In this document: positions 1 through 9,804 of the stretch, piece after piece | Layout of the letters: each line of letters opens with the position of its first letter | How positions within the stretch are numbered: the first letter of the stretch is position 1 | From: an uncultured delta proteobacterium | GTDB lineage: Bacteria > Desulfobacterota > Desulfobacteria > Desulfobacterales > SpSt-501 | Length of the DNA stretch: 64,000 nucleotides | Direction: 5' to 3' | NCBI GenBank assembly: GCA_963700055.1 | Contig: CAVOWH010000023.1 | Location: 64,201-128,200, forward strand | The notes under the pieces: model-generated | Told to the model about the DNA's origin: nothing | The model's input: only the letters and a program-made list of their open reading frames with translations | Databases searched by the model: none | Translations under genes and position numbers: made by a program

Positions 1-2110
1 TGCTGCGGAAGGATTTGGCGAAGGCCAGCTGGATGTGGAAGACAGCTCCTCGATTAGCGACCGCAAAGATGAAATCGGCGCGCTGGCCAGAGCGTTCCAT
101 CGGATGCGGCTGCAGATCAAAGGACAGTTTCAAACGCTTGAAAGCAATTACACCCAATTGAAGTCCACCCAAGACGCCTTAAAGAAAAGCGAAGCGCATT
201 ACCGCAGCCTGTTCAACAACCTGCCCATCGGGCTCTACCGAACCACGCCCGAAGGGCTCGTTCTCGACGCCAACCCGATGCTCGTCCAAATGTTTGGCTA
301 TCCGGACAAAGAGACGTTTCTTTCGCGCCGGGCCGAGGAGCTGTATGTGACGACCGAGGATCGCGAAGTGTTCAAGCGAACGGTCAGCAGCCAGCCTTTC
401 GGCAGCCATTATGAATGCGAAATGCGCCGCTTTGACGGCGCCACCCTATGGGTTGAAAACCAATCAACCGCTTTTCGCGACAGCGAAGGGCGTGTCCTGT
501 ATTTCGAAGGCAGCCTCAAGGACATCACGGAGCGAAAGCGCTCGGAGGAGGCGCTCAGAAACAGCGAGGCACGATTTCGGACCGCCTTTGAAAATGCGTC
601 GGTCGGGATGACCTTGGTGGACCTGCACGGGGTTTATTTTGAGGTCAATCCGGCGCTGGGCGGGATGGTCGGCTACCGCCCGGCCGAAATGATCGGGCGG
701 CCGGTAGCCGATTTTACCCATCCGGACGACATTGGCCTGCGGGCTCAGTTCCTGGACGATCTCTTGGAAGGCAGGATCTCTTCCGGTGAACAGGAACGAC
801 GCTTTGTTCACAAAGATGGTTCAACGGTTTGGACGCTGATTTGGGCCAGCCTGCATCGGGATCAAAATGGGCGACCCCTCTATTTCATTTCATTGGTCCA
901 GGATCTTACGGCTCGCAAGAAAGCCGATGAAGAAAGGGGGAAACTCGAATCGCAGCTGCTCCAAGCTCAGAAAATGGAGGCGATCGGGGCCCTGGCCGGA
1001 GGGATCGCCCACGATTTCAACAACATTCTGTCGGCCATCATCGGGTACACGGAATTGTCCACGCTCGGCGATGGAGCGCCGGTCGACTATCTGCAGGAGG
1101 TCTTGAAGGCGGCCAACCGGGCCAAAGATTTGGTCAAGCAGATTCTATCCTTCAGCCGGCAGACAGAAGAAGAAAGAATGCCGGTTCATGTCGGCATGGT
1201 CGTCAAAGAAGTTGCGAAGTTTTTAAGAGCCAGCATTCCCACCACCATCGACATCAACTGTCACATCGACGAAAAAGCCGGTTCGGTGCTGGCGAATTCG
1301 GTTGAGTTGCATCAAATCATGATGAACCTCTGTACCAACGCGGTGCATGCCATCGGTGGGCAGGCGGGTGTCGTTGAGATTCGAGTTCGGCGGGTTGAAA
1401 TCACCGCGAGGCAAAGAAATGCATGCCCCGATTTGGATCCGGGGTTCTACGTAGAGCTTTCGGTCAAGGATACGGGACAAGGAATTCGCCCGGAGATCAT
1501 GGAACGAATATTCGATCCCTACTTTACCACGAAGGAAAAGGGGGTCGGCACCGGCCTGGGGCTCGCGGTCGTTCATGGTATCGTCAAGAAATCGAACGGA
1601 ACCATTGGGGTCGAAAGCCACCTGAATGAGGGTTCAATTTTCTATATCTATCTGCCTCAGATTGAGATGCCGTCCGCTACCCTGCCCCATCCGTCCTTAG
1701 TTCCGCTGGGAGGTTCTGGCAGGATTCTGTTTGTGGATGATGAAAAAATGATCGCGGATATCGGCGAAAAAATTCTTAGACGTTTAGGCTATGATGTCGT
1801 TTCGCGAACCAGCCCGGTCGAGGCCCTTGAACTGTTCAAGGTCAAATCCAGGGCGTTTGATCTTGTCATTTCGGATCAGACGATGCCTGGAATGACCGGG
1901 GACGCGCTCGCAAGAGAATTAATGCAAATCAACCCGGAAATCCCGGTCATTCTCTGTACCGGCTATAGCCAATTGATCGACGCGGAAAAGGCCAAAAAAA
2001 AGGGGATCAAAGCGCTCGTAATGAAACCCATTTTGATCAACGAGATGGATGACGCCATTCGCCGGGTTCTCAAAGAGGGTCCGTCCGCACCGGCACGCCC
2101 GCTCTCTTAG
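1..2110 (+). CDS. Hybrid sensor histidine kinase/response regulator (HAMP-PAS-PAS-HisKA-HATPase-REC), 5'-partial
   Basis: HAMP end (DEIGALARAF), two PAS domains, H-box AGGIAHDFNNIL, G-boxes DTGQG and GTGLGL, receiver LFVDDE...SDQTMP. The frame is open to the window start. Confidence 0.93.
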   Translation, partial: AAEGFGEGQLDVEDSSSISDRKDEIGALARAFHRMRLQIKGQFQTLESNYTQLKSTQDALKKSEAHYRSLFNNLPIGLYRTTPEGLVLDANPMLVQMFGYPDKETFLSRRAEELYVTTEDREVFKRTVSSQPFGSHYECEMRRFDGATLWVENQSTAFRDSEGRVLYFEGSLKDITERKRSEEALRNSEARFRTAFENASVGMTLVDLHGVYFEVNPALGGMVGYRPAEMIGRPVADFTHPDDIGLRAQFLDDLLEGRISSGEQERRFVHKDGSTVWTLIWASLHRDQNGRPLYFISLVQDLTARKKADEERGKLESQLLQAQKMEAIGALAGGIAHDFNNILSAIIGYTELSTLGDGAPVDYLQEVLKAANRAKDLVKQILSFSRQTEEERMPVHVGMVVKEVAKFLRASIPTTIDINCHIDEKAGSVLANSVELHQIMMNLCTNAVHAIGGQAGVVEIRVRRVEITARQRNACPDLDPGFYVELSVKDTGQGIRPEIMERIFDPYFTTKEKGVGTGLGLAVVHGIVKKSNGTIGVESHLNEGSIFYIYLPQIEMPSATLPHPSLVPLGGSGRILFVDDEKMIADIGEKILRRLGYDVVSRTSPVEALELFKVKSRAFDLVISDQTMPGMTGDALARELMQINPEIPVILCTGYSQLIDAEKAKKKGIKALVMKPILINEMDDAIRRVLKEGPSAPARPLS

Positions 2111-2210
2111 CCGCGCGGAAGAGCTTCGCCGTCGACCATCAGCCGCAGGATTCCGAACTCAGAGGTGTCGGCCAGCGCCAACGCCCGGAAGTTGATCCCC
2201 ATCGCCGCGG
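2107..2210 (-). pseudogene. Fragment of an ACT-domain protein
   Basis: The translation GINFRALALADTSEFGILRLMVD resembles the ACT-domain motif GINIRALSLADTxDFGILRLIV. No start codon or full gene. Confidence 0.5.
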
Positions 2211-2326
2211 CCCGCCCGGGCGGGCATGGCCAGGAGGCGCTCCTTGACAGACAGGGGCGGAGCCCATAGTAATGCAACGAAAAATCATGGTTTGCGGGTG
2301 CCATTCGAAGCCGGAGCTTTGCCACC

Positions 2327-4150
2327 ATGCCCCAGATGAGTTTTCTAGAAGTTTACGGCCGGGTGCTCGGCCTGCTCAAGCCTGTGCGTGGGCTGGCGCT
2401 CGGCCTTACCTTCGCCAACCTGGGATTGGCGGCCGTGCCCTTTTTGGACCCCATCCTGTTCGGCAAGGCGATCGACCTGCTCACCCAGGCCTCCACGCGC
2501 GGGGCCGAGGCGACCTTCAAAGACGGCGTGAAGATTTTTGGTTTGTGGACGGCGGTCGGAGTGGGGGGCATCGTAGCCGGGATCCTGGTGTCTCTGCACG
2601 CAGACCGGCTGGCCCACCGCCAGCGCCACCATGTCAGCGCGCAATTCTTCGAACACGTGCTGCAGTTGCACTTGGCGTATCACCGCAGCTCCCACTCCGG
2701 CCGGTTGCTGAAGATCATGCTGCAAGGCGCGGACCACCTCTTCGGGTTGTGGCTCTCCATGTTCCGGGAGCACTTGTCCACGCTGGTGTCCATGCTGGTG
2801 CTGCTGCCCATGACCCTGTTCCTCAACTGGCGGCTCGCCTTGGTGCTGATGATCCTGCTGCTGGTCTCGGCGCTGCTCACCGGCTACGTCACGCGTCGTA
2901 CCCTCACGGCCCAGGGAGAGGTGGAGGCGCGTCGCAGCAACCTGGCGGAACGGGCGGGAGATGCCATCGGCAACGTGGTGTTGGTGCAAAGCTTCGTGCG
3001 ACTGTCGGCGGAGATGCGCATGATGCGCGAGGAGATCGAGCGCCTGCTCTCCGCCCAGTTCCCGGTGCTCAACTGGTGGGCGGTGGTGAGTGTCCTTCAG
3101 GGCGCGGTCGCGACCATCACGGTCATCAGTATTTTCGCCATGGGCGCCTGGCTCAACCTGAAGGGCGAGGCGACGGTGGGCGAGATCGTCACCTTCATGG
3201 GGTTCGCCACCCACCTCATCGGCCGCATGAACCAAGTGGTGGGATTTGTGAACAGCCTGTTCATGGACGCCCACGGCCTGGTGGAGTTTTTCGATGTGCT
3301 GGACATCGAGTCTGCCGTGCGCGACAAGCCCGGTGCGCGGCCGCTCGCCCCGGTCCAGGGCCGGGTGGAGTTCGACCACGTCAGCTTCGGCTACACCAGC
3401 CAGCGCAACGCCCTGGAGGATATCTCCTTCTTGGCCGAGCCGGGCCGGACCGTGGCCCTGGTGGGCGAGACCGGGGCCGGCAAGAGCACCGCGATGGGTC
3501 TGCTGCACCGGCAGCAGGATCCGCATTCGGGAACGATCCGCATCGACGGCATCGATATCCGCGATGTCACCCTTGACTCGCTGCGCGCGAACATCGGGGT
3601 GGTGTTTCAGGAAAGCATGCTGTTTTACCGCAGCATCGCCGACAACCTGCGCGTCGGCAAGCCGGACGCCAGCGACGCCGAACTAGAAGAGGCGGCGCGC
3701 CTTGCCTGTGCTCACGACTTCATTCTCTTACAACCCCGCGGCTACCAAACCCGCATCGGCGAGCGCGGTTCCACCCTGAGCGGCGGCGAGCGCCAGCGCC
3801 TCGCCATTGCCCGCGTGCGGCTCAAGAACCCGCCCATCCTCATTCTGGACGAGGCCACGAGCGCCCTGGACGCCACCACCGAAGCCCTGGTGCAGCAGGC
3901 CCTCCAGACCCTGATGCGGGGGCGCACCACATTTGTCATCGCCCATCGCCTCGCCACCATCCGCAGCGCGGACATGATCCTGGTATTCCAGAAGGGCCGC
4001 GTCATCGAGCGCGGGAGCTTTCAGGACTTGGTGCGACAGGGCGGCTTCTTCGCTCAGATGGTGGCGACACAGTTCCAGAACCCGGCGGCGGCTGATGGCA
4101 ACCCCTCTGACGGCTCGGCGGCCTTTAACACCCCCTCCGACAACATGTGA
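2327..4150 (+). CDS. ndvA: Cyclic beta-1,2-glucan exporter-like ABC transporter, fused permease/ATPase (NdvA/ChvA-like)
   Basis: N-terminus MSFLEVYGRVLGLL...DPILFGKAID and LFGLWLSMFREHL resemble NdvA/ChvA. Walker A GETGAGKST, signature LSGGERQ, Walker B ILILDE. Alternative start at 2336. Confidence 0.8.
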   Translation: MPQMSFLEVYGRVLGLLKPVRGLALGLTFANLGLAAVPFLDPILFGKAIDLLTQASTRGAEATFKDGVKIFGLWTAVGVGGIVAGILVSLHADRLAHRQRHHVSAQFFEHVLQLHLAYHRSSHSGRLLKIMLQGADHLFGLWLSMFREHLSTLVSMLVLLPMTLFLNWRLALVLMILLLVSALLTGYVTRRTLTAQGEVEARRSNLAERAGDAIGNVVLVQSFVRLSAEMRMMREEIERLLSAQFPVLNWWAVVSVLQGAVATITVISIFAMGAWLNLKGEATVGEIVTFMGFATHLIGRMNQVVGFVNSLFMDAHGLVEFFDVLDIESAVRDKPGARPLAPVQGRVEFDHVSFGYTSQRNALEDISFLAEPGRTVALVGETGAGKSTAMGLLHRQQDPHSGTIRIDGIDIRDVTLDSLRANIGVVFQESMLFYRSIADNLRVGKPDASDAELEEAARLACAHDFILLQPRGYQTRIGERGSTLSGGERQRLAIARVRLKNPPILILDEATSALDATTEALVQQALQTLMRGRTTFVIAHRLATIRSADMILVFQKGRVIERGSFQDLVRQGGFFAQMVATQFQNPAAADGNPSDGSAAFNTPSDNM

Positions 4151-4193: not shown

Positions 4194-4251
4194 GGTGGGC
4201 TTCTCCTTGGCTTTGTTCGGTCAGGCGTTTTTGGTTCTTGTGAGCTACTCC

Positions 4252-5706
4252 CAATACTGTTCACTTAATAAAAAATTCGTGCTATCCTACTCCAACTCTA
4301 ACCGGGAGGTGGGCGTATGGCACGAACAATCGCAGAGCTCCCCAGAGGGAGCCGGATAACGGACTACATCAGTCTTGGGTTGATTGCCAAGGTATTTCCA
4401 CGGGAGAAGCTGCAATCGGTTTTGGCCGAAACAGGCAAAGAAAGCCTCCGGCAGCGGGAACTGCCAGCACACGTGGTGATTTACTATGTGATTGCGCTGG
4501 CTCTTTACATGAACAGCTCCTACCGCGAGGTTCTGCGCTGTCTGTTGGAGGGTGTCCAATGGTTGCAACTGCATCCGGGTGGTATCAAAGTGACTGGCAA
4601 ATCGGGCATTTCCAAAGCCCGCAGCCGACTGGGATCGGAGCCGATGCGGCGGTTGCATGATCAGACGGTCCGACCGATCGCCACGGCTGAGACACGCGGG
4701 GCGTTTTACCGCCAGTGGCAGATAGTGAGCATTGACGGAGCCACACTGGATGTCGCCGATGAGATCAGTACTGCGAAGACCTTCGGCCGTCCCGGGGCGA
4801 GCCGAGGAGCAAGTGCGTATCCGCAAATTCGGTTTGTTTCGCTGGTTGAAAACGGCACCCACGTTTTGTTCGGAACTCAGGTGGGAGCTTGCCGCTGCAG
4901 TGAAATTGCTCTGGCGCGTCAGACCATCACGCATCTGCGAACCGGGATGTTGTGTTTGGCAGACCGTAACTTCTTTAGCTATGAGCTTTGGCAACAGGCT
5001 CGGGCGACGGGCGCTGAGCTGCTGTGGCGGGTCAAAAAGAACCTGCGCTTGGCCTGCGAGCAGCGTTTGCCCGACGGTTCGTTTCTGAGCCGCATCTATG
5101 CTTCGCCGAGAGATCGCAGGCACCAGAGAAATGCTGTGCTCGTGCGCGTGATCGAGTATCGGCTGGAGGGGGTAGAGCAAAGCGAGCCCATCTATCGGCT
5201 GCTGACGAGCATTTTGGACCCTCAACAGGCACCGGCTCAGGAGCTGGCGGCGCTCTATCACGAACGCTGGGAGATTGAGACCGCCCTTGATGAGTTCAAG
5301 ACGCATCTGCGCGGAGCCCAGATTGTTTTGCGCAGCAAGACCCCGGAGCTGGTCTACCAGGAGTTCTATGGTTTGATGATGGCGCATTTTGCCATCCGGG
5401 GCCTGATGCACGAAGCGGCCCTGAAGGCCGATGAGGACCCAGACAGGTTGTCGTTCTTGCACGCCGTGCGGGTTATGCGCCGCAAACTGCCTTTGTCCAG
5501 CGCTATTCCCCCCTGCGGGGTGGATCGCTTTCCATGAGGCGGTCTTACAAGAAATCTTGCAGGAGCGAGTGGTTTCCAGTCGCAATCGGAGTATTCCGCG
5601 AGGCGTCAAGCGCAAAATGAGCAAATTTCCGCTGCGGAAACGGCATGCAAAATTGAAGTCCGTCTGTGTAGAAAAGTGCATTCAAATAATAAAGTGAACA
5701 GTATTG
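4252..5706 (+). mobile_element. IS4-family insertion sequence, 1455 bp
   Basis: Perfect 15-bp terminal inverted repeats CAATACTGTTCACTT (4252-4266 and 5692-5706). 10-bp target duplication GAGCTACTCC (4242-4251 and 5707-5716). Confidence 0.96.
4317..5537 (+). CDS. IS4-family DDE transposase; probable C-terminal extension in the +1 frame to 5697
   Basis: DDE motifs SIDGA and LADRNF, and YHERWEIE (YREK-like). Enclosed by the IS4 inverted repeats. Confidence 0.93.
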   Translation: MARTIAELPRGSRITDYISLGLIAKVFPREKLQSVLAETGKESLRQRELPAHVVIYYVIALALYMNSSYREVLRCLLEGVQWLQLHPGGIKVTGKSGISKARSRLGSEPMRRLHDQTVRPIATAETRGAFYRQWQIVSIDGATLDVADEISTAKTFGRPGASRGASAYPQIRFVSLVENGTHVLFGTQVGACRCSEIALARQTITHLRTGMLCLADRNFFSYELWQQARATGAELLWRVKKNLRLACEQRLPDGSFLSRIYASPRDRRHQRNAVLVRVIEYRLEGVEQSEPIYRLLTSILDPQQAPAQELAALYHERWEIETALDEFKTHLRGAQIVLRSKTPELVYQEFYGLMMAHFAIRGLMHEAALKADEDPDRLSFLHAVRVMRRKLPLSSAIPPCGVDRFP

Positions 5707-5709
5707 GAG

Positions 5710-6132
5710 CTACTCCCTTACTTCCGCTTTCATCTCCAGCTGTACATGTCCCCAGCCACCGCACATGGGTCCGACATCGAAACAGCCTGTCCGGTTGAAC
5801 ATCACCTCATTGGGGTCCCTGCCGTTCATTAGATTCTCAAAAAATGCATTTATTAGCACCGTCAGATTCGGCATCAAAAAGGCGCAAACGCGATCGGGAG
5901 ATTCCTGGGTCAACAGGTTGCCGGCGGAGTCGAAGACGATGCGCTGTCCGACCACATGCCCTGAATGGCATCCTTTTGAAGCTACGACCTCCGCTACAAG
6001 ACGGTAACGCGACCCTTTTGCAGCATTTTCAAATAGCCGCTTGTATTTAGGGTTCCCCAGAACAGCAACCAGTTCCTCTCCTTCCAATGCTAATCGTCTC
6101 TTGATAATCTGGACCAATGTGTCTTTCTCCAT
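5710..6132 (-). CDS. Cassette-borne Cys-rich hypothetical protein (TIGR04076-like)
   Basis: Start MEKDTL after purine-rich AGGAAGGGAAG. Motifs GCHSGHVVGQ, DRVCAF, GCFDVGPMCGG. The longer ORF start runs through the attC site. Confidence 0.7.
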   Translation of the reverse strand: MEKDTLVQIIKRRLALEGEELVAVLGNPKYKRLFENAAKGSRYRLVAEVVASKGCHSGHVVGQRIVFDSAGNLLTQESPDRVCAFLMPNLTVLINAFFENLMNGRDPNEVMFNRTGCFDVGPMCGGWGHVQLEMKAEVRE

Positions 6133-6209
6133 TTGTCTTCCCTTCCTTGACTCAGATGGTTGGCTGAACGAACCCATTTTATCATGTGAGATACGGCGAA
6201 GGCGGAAAA

Positions 6210-6277
6210 TGCGAACGGAAAGCTGAGCTATAGGCGGGCGCCCTTTTCCGCCGATCCGCTCCAGCGCCTGGTTGGGC
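6210..6277 (-). other. Integron attC site
   Basis: Minus strand GCCCAAC-CAGGCGCTGGAGCGGA...AGCTCAGCTTTCC-GTTCGCA, an imperfect palindrome starting 3 nt after the upstream stop codon. Confidence 0.8.
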
Positions 6278-6280
6278 AAT

Positions 6281-7012
6281 TCATGCTTTTGTTGCTCTCA
6301 GTGCTTGAAAAGCCATGGCGGCTTTGAGAAAGGCCACAATAACAGGATGAGGGTTGCCCGGCTCTGAAGACAACTGAGGAAGGAAGAGAGTTGCCAAAAA
6401 GAACGGATGAGAGACAAGCTCTACGATTCTTGCATTCCCATCAGAGTCCCTACCTACGGTGCTGAGATTGCCCCTCATGATATCGTGGCGGTAGTTTTCA
6501 TTGAGTCCGTAGTTGCAACTGAACTGCTCAGTGGCACGGTCCTTTCCAAATGTTTTGAAAGCTAAAGTGCCCGGCGTGATGAAAACCTCTTGTTGAATAC
6601 CGGCAAGAGAGCACGCAAGACGACTTATGACGAGAGCGGGAGAAGTGGGCGCTGTCTCCTCAAAATCAGCATCTCGTATGCCTGCAACATTTCGTGCATG
6701 CTCTACCAGAGCATACTGAAAACCACTTCAAGTTCCCAGAAATGGCAAGCTTAGCTCCCTGGCAAATCGGATTGCTTCCAATGCGCCGTTCATGCTCCTA
6801 TAAGGGCCTCCGGGAGCACAGAAAATACCATCGTATTCCACCAACTTAATTCGTGCTCGGTCGGCCTCCAACGTCTGCGTGGGAATCCATTCAGTACTGA
6901 CACCAAGAACCAGGGTTTCCGCCCCGTGACGCAGAGCTTCATTAGTTGCCCTGTGTGACGGTCGCTCTGCCTCATAGTCCCCGACAACCGCAATTGCTAC
7001 GCCAGAGTTCAT
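6281..7012 (-). CDS. CTP synthase C-terminal-like class I glutamine amidotransferase family protein; probable selenoprotein (UGA at codon 95)
   Basis: ORFs 6728..7012 and 6281..6478 share one frame and are interrupted only by TGA (6728-6730) in PFLGT*SGFQYA, the position of the nucleophile Cys in GTCGGFQ. A SECIS-like hairpin follows. Confidence 0.85.
6696..6716 (-). promoter_or_regulatory. Putative bacterial SECIS element
   Basis: Minus strand GTATGCTCT-GGT-AGAGCATGC: a 9-bp stem (one G-U pair) with a GGU loop, beginning 11 nt after the UGA. Confidence 0.75.
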
Positions 7013-7031
7013 CTTGTCCTTACATTTCGTT

Positions 7032-7088
7032 GCCTAACGCCGAGTTAATTGGCAGTCGTAGGCTGTCCGCTTGAACGACTGGTTGGCT
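7032..7088 (-). other. Integron attC site
   Basis: Minus strand AGCCAAC-CAGTCGTTCAAGCGGAC...ATTAACTCGGC-GTTAGGC. Its R'' (AGCCAAC) is the exact complement of the cassette's entry R' (GTTGGCT, 7962-7968). Confidence 0.88.
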
Positions 7089-7170
7089 CTTACTGTACTT
7101 TGAATAACTGCCGATTCTCCAAATTCGCCAGTAATATCAGAACTGACCGACATGGACGAAATGAATCACG

Positions 7171-7935
7171 CTAAAGCGTTTCTAATTTTTCAAGCAGCTT
7201 TTTCCTTGTCAGCAGCACGTAATCCCTGTCCGGTGCGAAAATTTCGAGCGTAATCGTGCCGTCATAACAGCCTTTCAGTGTCCTGATAAGATGTTCCCAT
7301 CGGATTAAGCCGACACCCATCGGCAGATGAAGGTCAGCCTGCCCGTTGTTGTCATGCAGGTGAACATGCGACAACCGGTCTTTGAACTCAACAATACACG
7401 CTGCCGGATCTTTGCCGTACAGGTTCAGATGCCCGGTATCAGCGTGAAAATCAATTTCCGGGTTCAGTTCCAGAATTTTTCGGATGTTTTTGATGCTGTC
7501 CCGCGGAGAGTCTGTAGATTCGTAAATGATTTTGACGCCAAAGTCCCTGGCAAAGGCTGAAAGGGTCTGAAGGGATTCCGTCTGATACGCGATGGCCTCG
7601 TCAGCCGTGAACAGTCCAAATGCCCAGTGAGCATGGACTGTGAGCTTATAACACCGAATGTTGCTGCAAAGCACCACATAGCGTTTCAGGATTTCAACCG
7701 CATTTTCTCTGAGGGGTTTGGACGGCGAGCCAATCGGCAGATACCAAGCGGTATGCCCGACGGCATCCAGCCCGTATTCATCCAGTGCGTTTCTCACACC
7801 TGCCGGATCAATCTGATGCGCTTCAGCTTTGTCTGCTTCAAAAAAGAGGTCGGCAAAGTCAAACCCGTTTTTGCCAATCCAATGAATTTCATCAACCATA
7901 TTGTTTCGGGGATACGTGGGGAATCCGATTTTCAT
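7171..7935 (-). CDS. Cassette-borne sugar phosphate isomerase/epimerase family (xylose isomerase-like TIM barrel)
   Basis: Start MKIGFPTYP. Metal-binding motifs DTGHL, HVHLHDN, DLHLPMG, TLEIF. Confidence 0.85.
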   Translation of the reverse strand: MKIGFPTYPRNNMVDEIHWIGKNGFDFADLFFEADKAEAHQIDPAGVRNALDEYGLDAVGHTAWYLPIGSPSKPLRENAVEILKRYVVLCSNIRCYKLTVHAHWAFGLFTADEAIAYQTESLQTLSAFARDFGVKIIYESTDSPRDSIKNIRKILELNPEIDFHADTGHLNLYGKDPAACIVEFKDRLSHVHLHDNNGQADLHLPMGVGLIRWEHLIRTLKGCYDGTITLEIFAPDRDYVLLTRKKLLEKLETL

Positions 7936-7961
7936 AGCACACTCTTGAGATTTTGGATTTG

Positions 7962-8092
7962 AGCCAACACTGCGCTTCACCCGCCGGACGGGCATCGCAG
8001 AAACCTTTGTAAAAAGAGATAAACTTTGATCTGCATCACCCTTGCAAAAAGCGCCGATGGAGCCCGGTCGGATATGCAAGCGCTTGTTATAA
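7962..8092 (-). other. Integron attC site (131 bp)
   Basis: Minus strand TTATAAC-AAGCGCTTGCA...GGTGAAGCGCAGT-GTTGGCT. R'' overlaps the TAA stop of the upstream gene. Confidence 0.88.
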
Positions 8093-8443
8093 GCCTTTCA
8101 ATTTAACTGTAAAAAAACGAAAGCCTTTGGATTTCATTTCCTCGAAGTTAGCTTCCGAAACGGGCAATCCTTCTTTGCGTGCAAGTGGATAAAAATTCTT
8201 ATACGACTCCTCATCAAAACCATAGGACGCACCAAGTTTAAGGCCTCTTAATATTTCTCCGAATCTGGTCTTTTTTACGGTGTGTCTTTTTTGCCCATCC
8301 GGTTCGATTTCTGACAGAAAAGCTTTCATAGCTCGAAGAGATCCAGATATTACACAGGCATCACCAGCATCTCCTGTGCATACAACTTCAGTAGGAGAAA
8401 CAAAGGCAAAATATCCAATTACCTTTCGACTGCGATCAGCCAT
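8087..8443 (-). CDS. Cassette-borne hypothetical protein
   Basis: AT-rich 118-aa ORF whose stop lies inside the attC R''. It fills the cassette. Confidence 0.75.
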
Positions 8444-8480
8444 ATGATTTTCAACTCTTTGTTTATCGATTGGCTTATAA

Positions 8481-8706
8481 TAAGGCGATCAAGGCCGCTG
8501 TGCGCCGTGTGGGTTTGACCAAGCGCATCAGCGCCCATACGTTTCGCCATTCCTTTGCCACCCACCTGCTCCAGCGCGGCACCGACATCCGCACGATTCA
8601 AGCCCTGTTGGGACATAGCGATCTTGCCACCACCATGATCTACACCCACATCCTGCAGCAAGGCGGCCATGGCGTACCCAGCCCTCTTGACGACCTCGGT
8701 GTGTGA
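8481..8706 (+). pseudogene. intI: 3' remnant of integron integrase
   Basis: [73 protein letters not shown] contains the tyrosine recombinase HxxR/H/Y residues and an IntI-type C-terminus. It is divergent from the attC cassettes and the N-terminal part is absent. Confidence 0.88.
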
Positions 8707-9123
8707 TCGGCTCTGTGGAAGCAGACAAAGTGCTTCACCAGATGCGGGGTGCATTGGCTGTAATGGCGAATACACGGCAACTTGCAGTTTTGCTCTGGTG
8801 CTCCATGAGCGGGCATCACCCGGCGGGGATGAGGCTGCGGGCTGGAATCGGGATGGTCGCGGACGGATGACGGTGCTTGCGTTCTGCATGACACCACTTT
8901 GGAGCGTCCTCTTGCCACAAGCCGAACGGTTAATGGATCGGAGAGGAAAATGCGTATGAAGGCTATAATGAGGGTCTGGAAAAGGCAAGCGGGTTATGGC
9001 GGAAATCCGAATGATGGCTTGGTCTGACCCAAGGAGCCCCGGAATTTCAGAATCCAGCGCAAGGTGATCACAGCCCAAGCCACACTGAACCCGAATTTCC
9101 AGCTCCCTCAGACAGTATGTGAA

Positions 9124-9171
9124 CAAAAAGAATTGGCGGCAGCAAGCATGCGCTGCCGCCAATTCTTTTTG
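9124..9171. terminator. Perfect 20-bp inverted repeat, probable bidirectional terminator
   Basis: CAAAAAGAATTGGCGGCAGC-aagcatgc-GCTGCCGCCAATTCTTTTTG. Confidence 0.75.
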
Positions 9172-9222
9172 CACGTCCATGCTTAAAATAAAAATGCGCC
9201 GCCCGCGCAGCAGGCGGCGTTT

Positions 9223-9804
9223 TTATTTTACACGTTCGGCCTTGAGGATCATGACGGTGTCGGCGGGCACGTCCTGGTGACCGCCGCGGTTGGTCGTCTT
9301 GACCTTGGCGATGGCGTCCACGACCTCCATGCCCTCCACCACCTTGCCGAAAACAGCATAGCCCCAGCCCTGAACGGTCTTGTTCTTAAAATCCAGGAAA
9401 TCGTTGTCCACCAGGTTGATGAAGAACTGGGCCGTCGCGCTGTCCGGCACCTGGGTGCGGGCCATGGCGATCGCGCCGCGTTGGTTCTTCAGGCCGTTGT
9501 CAGCCTCGTTTTTGACCGGAGACTTGGTCGGTTTCTCCTTCATGCCGGCGGTCATTCCGCCGCCCTGGATCATGAAGTTGGGGATGACACGGTGGAAGAT
9601 GGTGCTGTTGTAGTGGCCGGCATCCACGTAGTCCAAAAAGTTCTGGACGGTCTTGGGTGCCTTGTCCGGGTAAAGCTCGATCACGATCTTGCCCTTGTCG
9701 GTCTCCAGCGCAACCTTGGGACTGTCGCCGGCGGCCGCCGGCGACACGGCAGCCAGGACGCTGAGTGCTGAAATCCATGCAAATTTCATAATCACGTTCT
9801 CCAT
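9223..9804 (-). CDS. ppiA: Exported cyclophilin-type peptidyl-prolyl cis-trans isomerase
   Basis: [19 protein letters not shown]...[18 protein letters not shown]-terminal signal peptide. Confidence 0.93.

Follow-up and report, generated by a model that had tools for sequence, protein, structure and literature searches.

The stretch analysed here, referred to as the window, comprises 64,000 nucleotides from an uncultured delta proteobacterium of the Desulfobacterales (contig CAVOWH010000023.1, positions 64,201 to 128,200), and the subject of this report is a predicted selenoprotein gene on its minus strand (6281..7012). The gene consists of 243 codons and a TGA stop, and its product is a member of the NF004836 family, a stand-alone domain with the fold of class I glutamine amidotransferases (GATases). 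Codon 95 (6728..6730) is a UGA, which is interpreted as a putative selenocysteine (Sec) at the nucleophile elbow (GxUxG), and a candidate hairpin of the selenocysteine insertion sequence (SECIS) type follows within the coding frame (6696..6716). The gene lies in an 822-bp unit (6216..7037) bounded by two attC recombination sites (6210..6277 and 7032..7088, all on the minus strand), which is interpreted as an integron gene cassette.

The gene, its family and the cassette

The minus-strand frame runs from the ATG at 7012 to 6284, with the TGA of codon 95 (6730–6728) as its sole internal stop, and the terminal stop is also a TGA (6283–6281). Under translation table 11 the frame is broken into an open reading frame (ORF) of 94 residues (6728..7012) and a second ORF (6281..6478). 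The motif around the internal TGA is PFLGT-U-SGFQ, where relatives read GT-C-GGFQ, so that the proposal of the first-pass annotation, a 243-codon frame broken only by a UGA at the position of the GATase nucleophile, is confirmed. The protein matches NF004836 with 309.7 bits against a cut-off of 260 (model positions 2–227 of 228), and the genome search returned the same family with 302 bits and one TGA in the match. The sole Pfam match is GATase (PF00117, 35.8 bits); the 243 residues leave out the N-terminal synthetase domain of CTP synthase (PyrG), and the PyrG models remain below their own cut-offs (138.6 versus 308). An AlphaFold2 model built on 118 relatives has a predicted local distance difference test score (pLDDT) of 96.5, and its top Foldseek matches are all GATase domains of CTP synthases (TMq 0.86–0.91). 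With these domains (for example 3nva, 1s1m and 1vco), the sequence identity is 27–32% and the nucleophile lies at the same elbow.

The NF004836 model is itself curated as a (seleno)protein family, and an excerpt of a 2026 review (PMC13188914) gives the family as a selenoprotein with the motif GxUxG; a phrase search for the family name returned no paper other than this review. By its match, the window gene is assigned to a catalogued family of selenoproteins and cysteine (Cys) proteins in which selenocysteine is already known, as the first-pass annotation had supposed. The window protein shares with the family the GxU/CxG motif, the T-L-F-x-P-Q sequence in place of His-Pro-Glu (HPE) and the stand-alone length of about 240 residues, whereas the location in an integron cassette was found solely for the window copy and for four other loci (L144, L145, L151 and L152). 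In the window copy, L144, L145 and L151 the sequence D-A-D-F-E-E stands where the family usually has D-A-x-H-A-E. The closest database entries are either C-terminal fragments (P0104 and P0121) or show Trp where the Sec would stand (P0002, P0003 and P0005), in keeping with the earlier expectation that gene callers would split or discard the gene. The latter three, which are the closest full-length database relatives after P0004, read GT-W-GGFQ; the source pipelines evidently rendered their TGA as Trp and so concealed the Sec.

The cassette extends from the TTAGGC just past the crossover G of the upstream attC site to the G of the R' box of its own attC site, and includes the ribosome-binding site of the gene. 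The latter (6210..6277) has a length of 68 nt and consists of R'' GCCCAAC, a 5-nt spacer, L'' GCTGGAGC, an inner stem, L' GCTCAGC, a second 5-nt spacer and R' GTTCGCA, with one base more in L'' than in L'. It was recovered by a strict box-and-pairing detector (background of 0.022 hits per 180 nt) with seven L-box pairs, and was also read by hand. The attC site of the upstream cassette (7032..7088, 57 nt) has the same layout of R'', spacer and L'' followed by L', spacer and R', again with the extra base in L''; its R' box is GTTAGGC, with the crossover at G7038|T7037, and the distance from this box to the ATG at 7012 is 19 nt. A constrained-fold scan for attC sites in 5000–9500 of the window was unspecific, since long stretches always fold well, and was dropped in favour of the box-and-pairing detector.

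The boundaries of the cassette are defined by comparison with nine metagenome loci, which encode relatives with 66–93% identity. Copies from metagenomes are 93–95% identical to the window solely between the G|TT points of both attC sites, and their flanks are unrelated. Four of these loci (L146, L147, L148 and L150) are one locus found in four metagenomes, mutually 99.4–99.8% alike; L146, L147 and L148 match the window only over 7040–6211 (94.6%), and L150 is cut off at a contig end. Upstream of this copy lies a different attC site (ACCCAAC ... GTTAGGC), and the identity with the window starts at GTTAGGC. In L144 and L149 the homology stops at 6214, and L144 has the upstream attC site in common with the window but not the downstream neighbour. 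Past the downstream GTT, the sequence continues as CGCATTT in the window, AGCCGGC in L146–148 and AGGCGCA in L144 and L149. In L145, where the protein is 75% identical, the gene is joined to another attC site (GCCCAAC ... GTTATAC), with GTTGGGC upstream. Of two contigs from a single sequencing run (X2), one keeps to the window sequence through 7038, whereas the other departs from it exactly at this point. The homology to independent metagenome loci thus begins and ends within 3 nt of the predicted G|TT crossovers, in at least three downstream and at least three upstream array contexts, and the flanks in those loci are attC sites themselves, with the same polarity of the extra base. Such breaks are the signature expected of integrase-mediated exchange at G|TT, and on this comparison the 822-bp unit is judged to be a genuine integron cassette, with the two attC sites of the first-pass annotation as real recombination boundaries. 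Short pieces of runs X12 and X19 at 6238–6270 and 6687–6721 are less than 95% alike and come from relatives, and were not used; none of the raw reads of run X21 could be placed on the stretch.

The alternative that the gene is an ordinary chromosomal one, flanked by attC-like sequences by chance and not part of any mobile cassette, draws on several observations that weigh against the cassette. When folded alone as DNA, the sites at 7088–7032 and 6277–6210 are no better than shuffled sequences (z = -1.0 and +0.9), and for this reason their validation comes from the homology breakpoints. The R' box of the Sec cassette, GTTCGCA, is non-canonical after GTT (GTTRRRY being the usual form), and neither an attI site nor an intact intI was recognised beside the array. 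With the box-and-pairing detector, an attC site after the gene was found in none of the 21 Sec loci of genome contigs (22 were scanned, one being short of 3' flank) and in none of the 55 Cys loci, both counts being of the loci classified before L070, L071 and L106. In five genomes that contain Sec homologues, a search for intI gave nothing over the cut-off. Apart from this alternative, the copy in L146–148 and L150 has a 1-nt deletion near codon 69 that shifts the frame, with the TGA and the letters of the hairpin still present, and in L146–148 the attC site is that of the window except for a mutated L' box (GCTCATC); this copy is therefore decaying, and the cassette is not maintained everywhere.

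Against a chance arrangement stand the breakpoints within 3 nt of both G|TT points with unrelated flanks, the variety of array contexts on either side, the attC sites in the flanks of the other loci with their common polarity, the leftover part of an integron integrase gene, divergently oriented in the canonical manner, and the rarity of the family in the phylum of the host, where it occurs in only two of 401 sampled genomes (the host and G384; the other 68 matches are PyrG). In other arrays, the same attC site ends with GTTAGGC (L144 and L149) or GTTAGCC (L146–148), and the detector found an attC site after the gene in three of the six metagenome copies with 3' flank (L144, L145 and L149). 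With this evidence, a chromosomal gene with fortuitous flanks is considered very improbable, and the cassette is retained as the explanation of the locus.

Decoding of UGA at codon 95

At the Sec column, the best 80 loci in genome contigs carry TGA in 24 cases, TGC in 34 and TGT in 22, so that Cys is encoded in 56 of the 80, and neither TAA nor TAG occurs among them; the Cys/UGA pairs that the first-pass annotation had proposed to look for are therefore present. All metagenome copies have kept the TGA. An independent contig of run X2 covers 6516–6975 with a single difference, at 6811, and has the TGA, so that codon 95 is not an assembly slip. The ratio of nonsynonymous to synonymous substitution rates (dN/dS) downstream of the UGA is 0.283, 0.174, 0.110 and 0.084 for the window against four relatives, and equals or undercuts the upstream value, consistent with purifying selection that goes on past the UGA.

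The machinery for Sec incorporation that had been named as a check is encoded in the genome of the host, where selA (621.5 bits), selB (367.3 bits) and the tRNA-Sec (74.5 bits) all score over the curated cut-offs. Two selD genes over the cut-off contain one in-frame TGA each (G000:C1:99838-100764 and G000:C24:232442-233362), and the selenophosphate synthetase of the host is accordingly predicted to be a selenoprotein itself, in two copies. A reassigned genetic code does not explain the internal TGA, because the gene also ends in TGA, and the decoding of UGA would have to be context-dependent, since the same gene terminates at this codon.

A candidate for this context is the hairpin that starts 11 nt past the UGA, in which a 9-bp stem (6716–6708 with 6704–6696, including one G.U pair) closes a GGU loop (6707–6705), exactly at the position given in the first-pass annotation. 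In the SECIS of the Escherichia coli fdhF type, the minimal upper stem-loop lies 11 nt past the UGA and contains G/U in the apical loop, which is bound by SelB. The window hairpin has in common with this type the 11-nt spacing, the short stem inside the ORF and the G-containing apical loop, whereas it differs in its 3-nt loop and in having no bulged U. The comparison with relatives carries the significance of the hairpin, since the fold of the single sequence is not significant. The mean fold energy at +10 to +42 is -10.3 kcal/mol in 23 Sec forms versus -4.1 kcal/mol in 55 Cys forms, and 5–9 contiguous pairs in the register of the window are found in 12 of the 23 Sec forms versus one of the 55 Cys forms. 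A different hairpin, displaced by 2 nt and with a 5-nt loop, is present in the 11 further Sec forms, which make up a Rokubacteria-type clade. The peptide past the column is near-identical in the Sec and Cys forms (FQH-A/T-L-V-E-Y-A-R-N), whereas the RNA differs: Cys forms that code for almost the same peptide have a mean of 0.4 contiguous pairs, compared with 8–9. Three loci classified later (L070, L071 and L035) have the window-type hairpin, and the apical loop is GGU or GUU in all 16 non-Rokubacteria sequences of alignment A3. By position and by its G-containing loop, the hairpin resembles a bacterial SECIS, and it is associated with UGA forms and largely absent from Cys forms.

Some results tell against the hairpin. 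Taken alone, the hairpin is no better than chance (z = -1.23, with 23 of 200 shuffles folding equally well). None of the nine stem pairs has changed on both sides, and the covariation score is attained in 97 of 500 shuffles. An Rfam scan of 6500–6900 gave no match with E up to 10, and an unrelated local hairpin is present in a Cys form as well (L106, -8.7 kcal/mol). A promoter scan was uninformative, with two promoter-like sites against 3.7 expected by chance and none identified as a promoter. A metatranscriptome provided one contig of 187 nt, 100% identical to 6349–6534, which is weak evidence of transcription and could be DNA carry-over. The TGA might instead be taken for a nonsense mutation that left a dead gene in two pieces, the codons for H/Y-A-L-V-E-H-A giving rise to the hairpin: under table 11 the frame yields two short ORFs, the single-sequence fold is not significant, compensatory double changes are absent from the stem and a frameshifted copy exists elsewhere; yet this explanation is the least credible of those considered and is practically dismissed by the TGA, never TAA or TAG, in 24 of 80 genome loci and all metagenome copies, by Cys at the column in the other 56 loci, by dN/dS values of 0.08–0.28 past the UGA, by the Cys forms that encode nearly the same peptide without the hairpin and by the curation of the family model as a (seleno)protein.

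Four lines therefore agree on the decoding of UGA95 as Sec, insofar as sequence comparison can tell: the Sec/Cys pairs, the UGA-specific hairpin, the selection past the codon and the machinery of the host. Taken together with the cassette boundaries, the joint reading of the locus as an NF004836 selenoprotein gene, with UGA95 and a SECIS-type hairpin, in an 822-bp integron cassette within a decayed local array is considered highly probable. In the mechanism proposed, the hairpin would allow SelB to recruit the Sec-tRNA to UGA95. Since the SECIS of bacteria is located within the ORF, the cassette would carry all of the cis information needed, and a full-length protein would be formed only in Sec-decoding hosts. 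It is reasonable to suppose that the cassette functions solely in selABCD-positive hosts.

The surrounding integron

On the upstream side of the Sec cassette, the preceding cassette gene (7171..7935, minus strand) encodes a xylose-isomerase-like TIM barrel (Pfam PF01261, E = 3.4e-33; NCBIfam matches are sub-threshold only). Beyond it, on the plus strand, lies the remnant of the integron integrase gene (8470..8706), of which the last 75 residues are left. The remnant matches TIGR02249 at positions 242–315 with 117.6 bits, better than every Xer model, and is 65% identical to an intact IntI encoded elsewhere in the genome (C4:475450-476394, 475.6 bits). Its orientation relative to the cassettes is divergent, which is the normal arrangement of an integron, and its 5' part is gone. 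An ORF of 118 residues without any family match (8443–8087, minus strand) adjoins the point at which the remnant is cut off, and is bracketed by 20-nt inverted repeats (8083–8102 and 8465–8484) that are 80% complementary; this unit may represent the insertion or rearrangement by which intI and attI were lost.

Downstream of the Sec cassette, a gene for a protein of 140 residues without a family (5710..6132, minus strand) is followed by an IS4-family insertion sequence (IS) element with 19-nt terminal inverted repeats (4251..5707, plus strand). The element is inserted at the stop codon of the 140-residue gene, with a 9-bp direct repeat GAGTAGCTC (5715–5707 and 4250–4242), and its transposase (4317–5537) matches the Pfam families Nterm_IS4 and DDE_Tnp_1. 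Without this element, the array would abut a terminator-like hairpin that it would share with the convergent ABC transporter gene. In the metagenome loci the neighbours are different. Those of L146–148 and L150 are an IS110-like transposase, a two-gene unit (221 and 161 residues), an ORF of 235 residues and a DUF2442/DUF4160-like pair, and in L144 and L149 the next unit consists of two large ORFs (342 and 563 residues) instead of the 140-residue gene of the window.

The protein of 140 residues is 38% identical (E = 2e-24) to that of the first cassette gene in the intact integron of the genome. This integron, on contig C4 of the host genome G000, is small (L033:10402-12300). A regular-expression scan for pairs of attC boxes beside the intact C4 intI gave only noise, and reading of the sequence revealed one clear attC site, which follows the first cassette, folds well (z = -3.3) and ends with GTTAGGC. 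The next gene encodes a rhodanese–RidA fusion with sub-threshold matches to rhodanese-type selenoprotein models, and no attC site was found after it.

The local array is thus described as a decayed integron that, judging from its content, is not active. Of the mobile integron cassette that the first-pass annotation had proposed, the mobility of the unit is upheld by its presence in several arrays, whereas the integron in which it now resides is a remnant. The intact IntI encoded on C4 could still move the cassette in trans. The locus resembles the cassettes of chromosomal (sedentary) integrons and of clusters of attC sites lacking integron-integrases (CALINs) in its single promoterless ORF, the 19 nt from R' to ATG, the 68-nt attC site and the exchange at G|TT, as well as in its neighbours, namely small cassettes, DUF2442/DUF4160 pairs and IS110 and IS4 elements. 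It differs from them in a cargo that needs UGA recoding, that is, a Sec machinery that is absent from most bacteria, and in a local integrase that has been reduced to 75 codons.

Possible function and spread of the family

The fold and the nucleophile elbow of class I GATases are present in the window protein, whereas the His and Glu residues of their H-P-E triad are not. In the alignment with solved CTP synthases, L-F-v-P-Q of the family profile corresponds to the HPE sequence (QaHPE, QFHPE), and the window copy has F-L-P-Q at the position of (F)-H-P-E, as the first-pass annotation had pointed out. The feature is nothing special to this copy: in every locus classified, Cys forms included, the His is replaced by Leu, Val or Gln and the Glu by Gln, with T-L-F-x-P-Q throughout. 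The loss of the triad His and Glu is, on this alignment, a family-wide trait that is tied neither to Sec nor to the window copy. Across 118 sequences, W42, R85, T94, Q99, E104, E119, C134, E162, L209, P212 and H222 are invariant, position 95 (as Cys) and C166 are conserved in at least 90% of the sequences, and H20 and H100 are near-invariant. Q99 is the Q of GxCxGxQ, and E119 aligns with the conserved E of S-T-E in CTP synthase. C134 and C166 align where CTP synthase has the GGTMRLG and RHRHRY loops, so that Cys-containing motifs take the place of two loops that line the glutamine site.

Since the family is without the His and Glu and has the invariant C134 and the near-invariant C166, we favour a reaction of Sec95 with C134 or C166, either a thiol/selenol redox reaction or a chalcogen transfer, as a tentative proposal to which we would give somewhat less than an even chance. 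This proposal is weakened by its dependence on the CTP synthase alignment and on general structural knowledge, and a scan of the genes around 20 relatives, covering 58 proteins selected out of 129 listed ORFs, revealed no recurring partner and no functional clue. In one of these 20 loci, and in no other, a Chloroflexota metagenome-assembled genome (L087) has a full-length pyrG (1324–3000) directly upstream of a Sec-containing homologue (3001–3702). A hydrolase or transferase reaction, with an acyl-seleno(thio)ester on residue 95 as in amidotransferases, and with the low pKa of Sec or another base (the invariant H222, or H20) in place of the His, would be compatible with the conserved GATase fold, the nucleophile elbow, Q99 and E119, and with the availability of H222, H20 and H100. 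The Cys forms, which are the majority, are also without the His and Glu, however, so that the pKa of Sec is not a general answer; the RHRHRY loop, which holds the Arg that binds the glutamine carboxylate in CTP synthase, is replaced by y-y-C-n-f-G; and Sec/Cys pairs are mostly redox sites. This acyl-enzyme reaction is therefore regarded as the less probable of the two, although not by any means negligible, and the redox or chalcogen-transfer reaction remains the one we prefer.

In a quick tree search with one outgroup row, the clade of the window is nested in a 17-row Sec clade that has a support of 99 in the Shimodaira–Hasegawa-like approximate likelihood ratio test (SH-aLRT), and the Sec/Cys label needs three changes overall. 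All five sequences of the cassette type fall into one group (SH-aLRT 84). This grouping inside the Sec clade suggests that an ancestrally Sec-encoding gene was captured once as an integron cassette. The second genome of the phylum with a family member has a homologue with 50% identity (L035, G384:C30:158265-158873), in which the TGA and the hairpin are kept and several stops lie upstream of residue 34; this may be a truncated or broken copy. Among metagenomes of sediment, wetland and freshwater, words of the window stretch were found in 13 studies with a total of 20 sequencing runs, and the best-matching run may be the source sample.

No description of a selenoprotein gene located in an integron cassette emerged from a search of open-access papers and preprints, with supplements outside its scope; the papers returned deal with cassettes for selenocysteine lyase or with other subjects. 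The novelty lies in the combination of a Sec-encoding gene with an integron cassette, as the protein family and the ordinary type of cassette are already known. Selenoprotein families are patchy across bacteria, and their spread has been inferred mostly from trees. The locus provides a concrete vehicle of transfer at base-pair resolution, in which an 822-bp cassette holds the ORF, the UGA, the SECIS-type hairpin and the attC site together, and thereby one way in which selenoprotein genes can move between bacteria. Because the closest database entries are half-genes or have Trp at the Sec column, inventories of integron cassettes probably under-count recoded genes. A broader possibility, which we consider rather unlikely at present, is that selenoprotein genes circulate as cassettes through the integrons of Sec-decoding sediment anaerobes, with an expression that depends on the SelABCD/tRNA-Sec machinery. 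If this were true, such cassettes would form a class of mobile genes that are expressed only where a rare host trait is present, and which standard gene callers would systematically miss because the ORF is split at the UGA, and a cassette that had landed in an unsuitable host, or was silent there, would decay, a fate that the frameshifted, attC-damaged copy from four metagenomes would fit.

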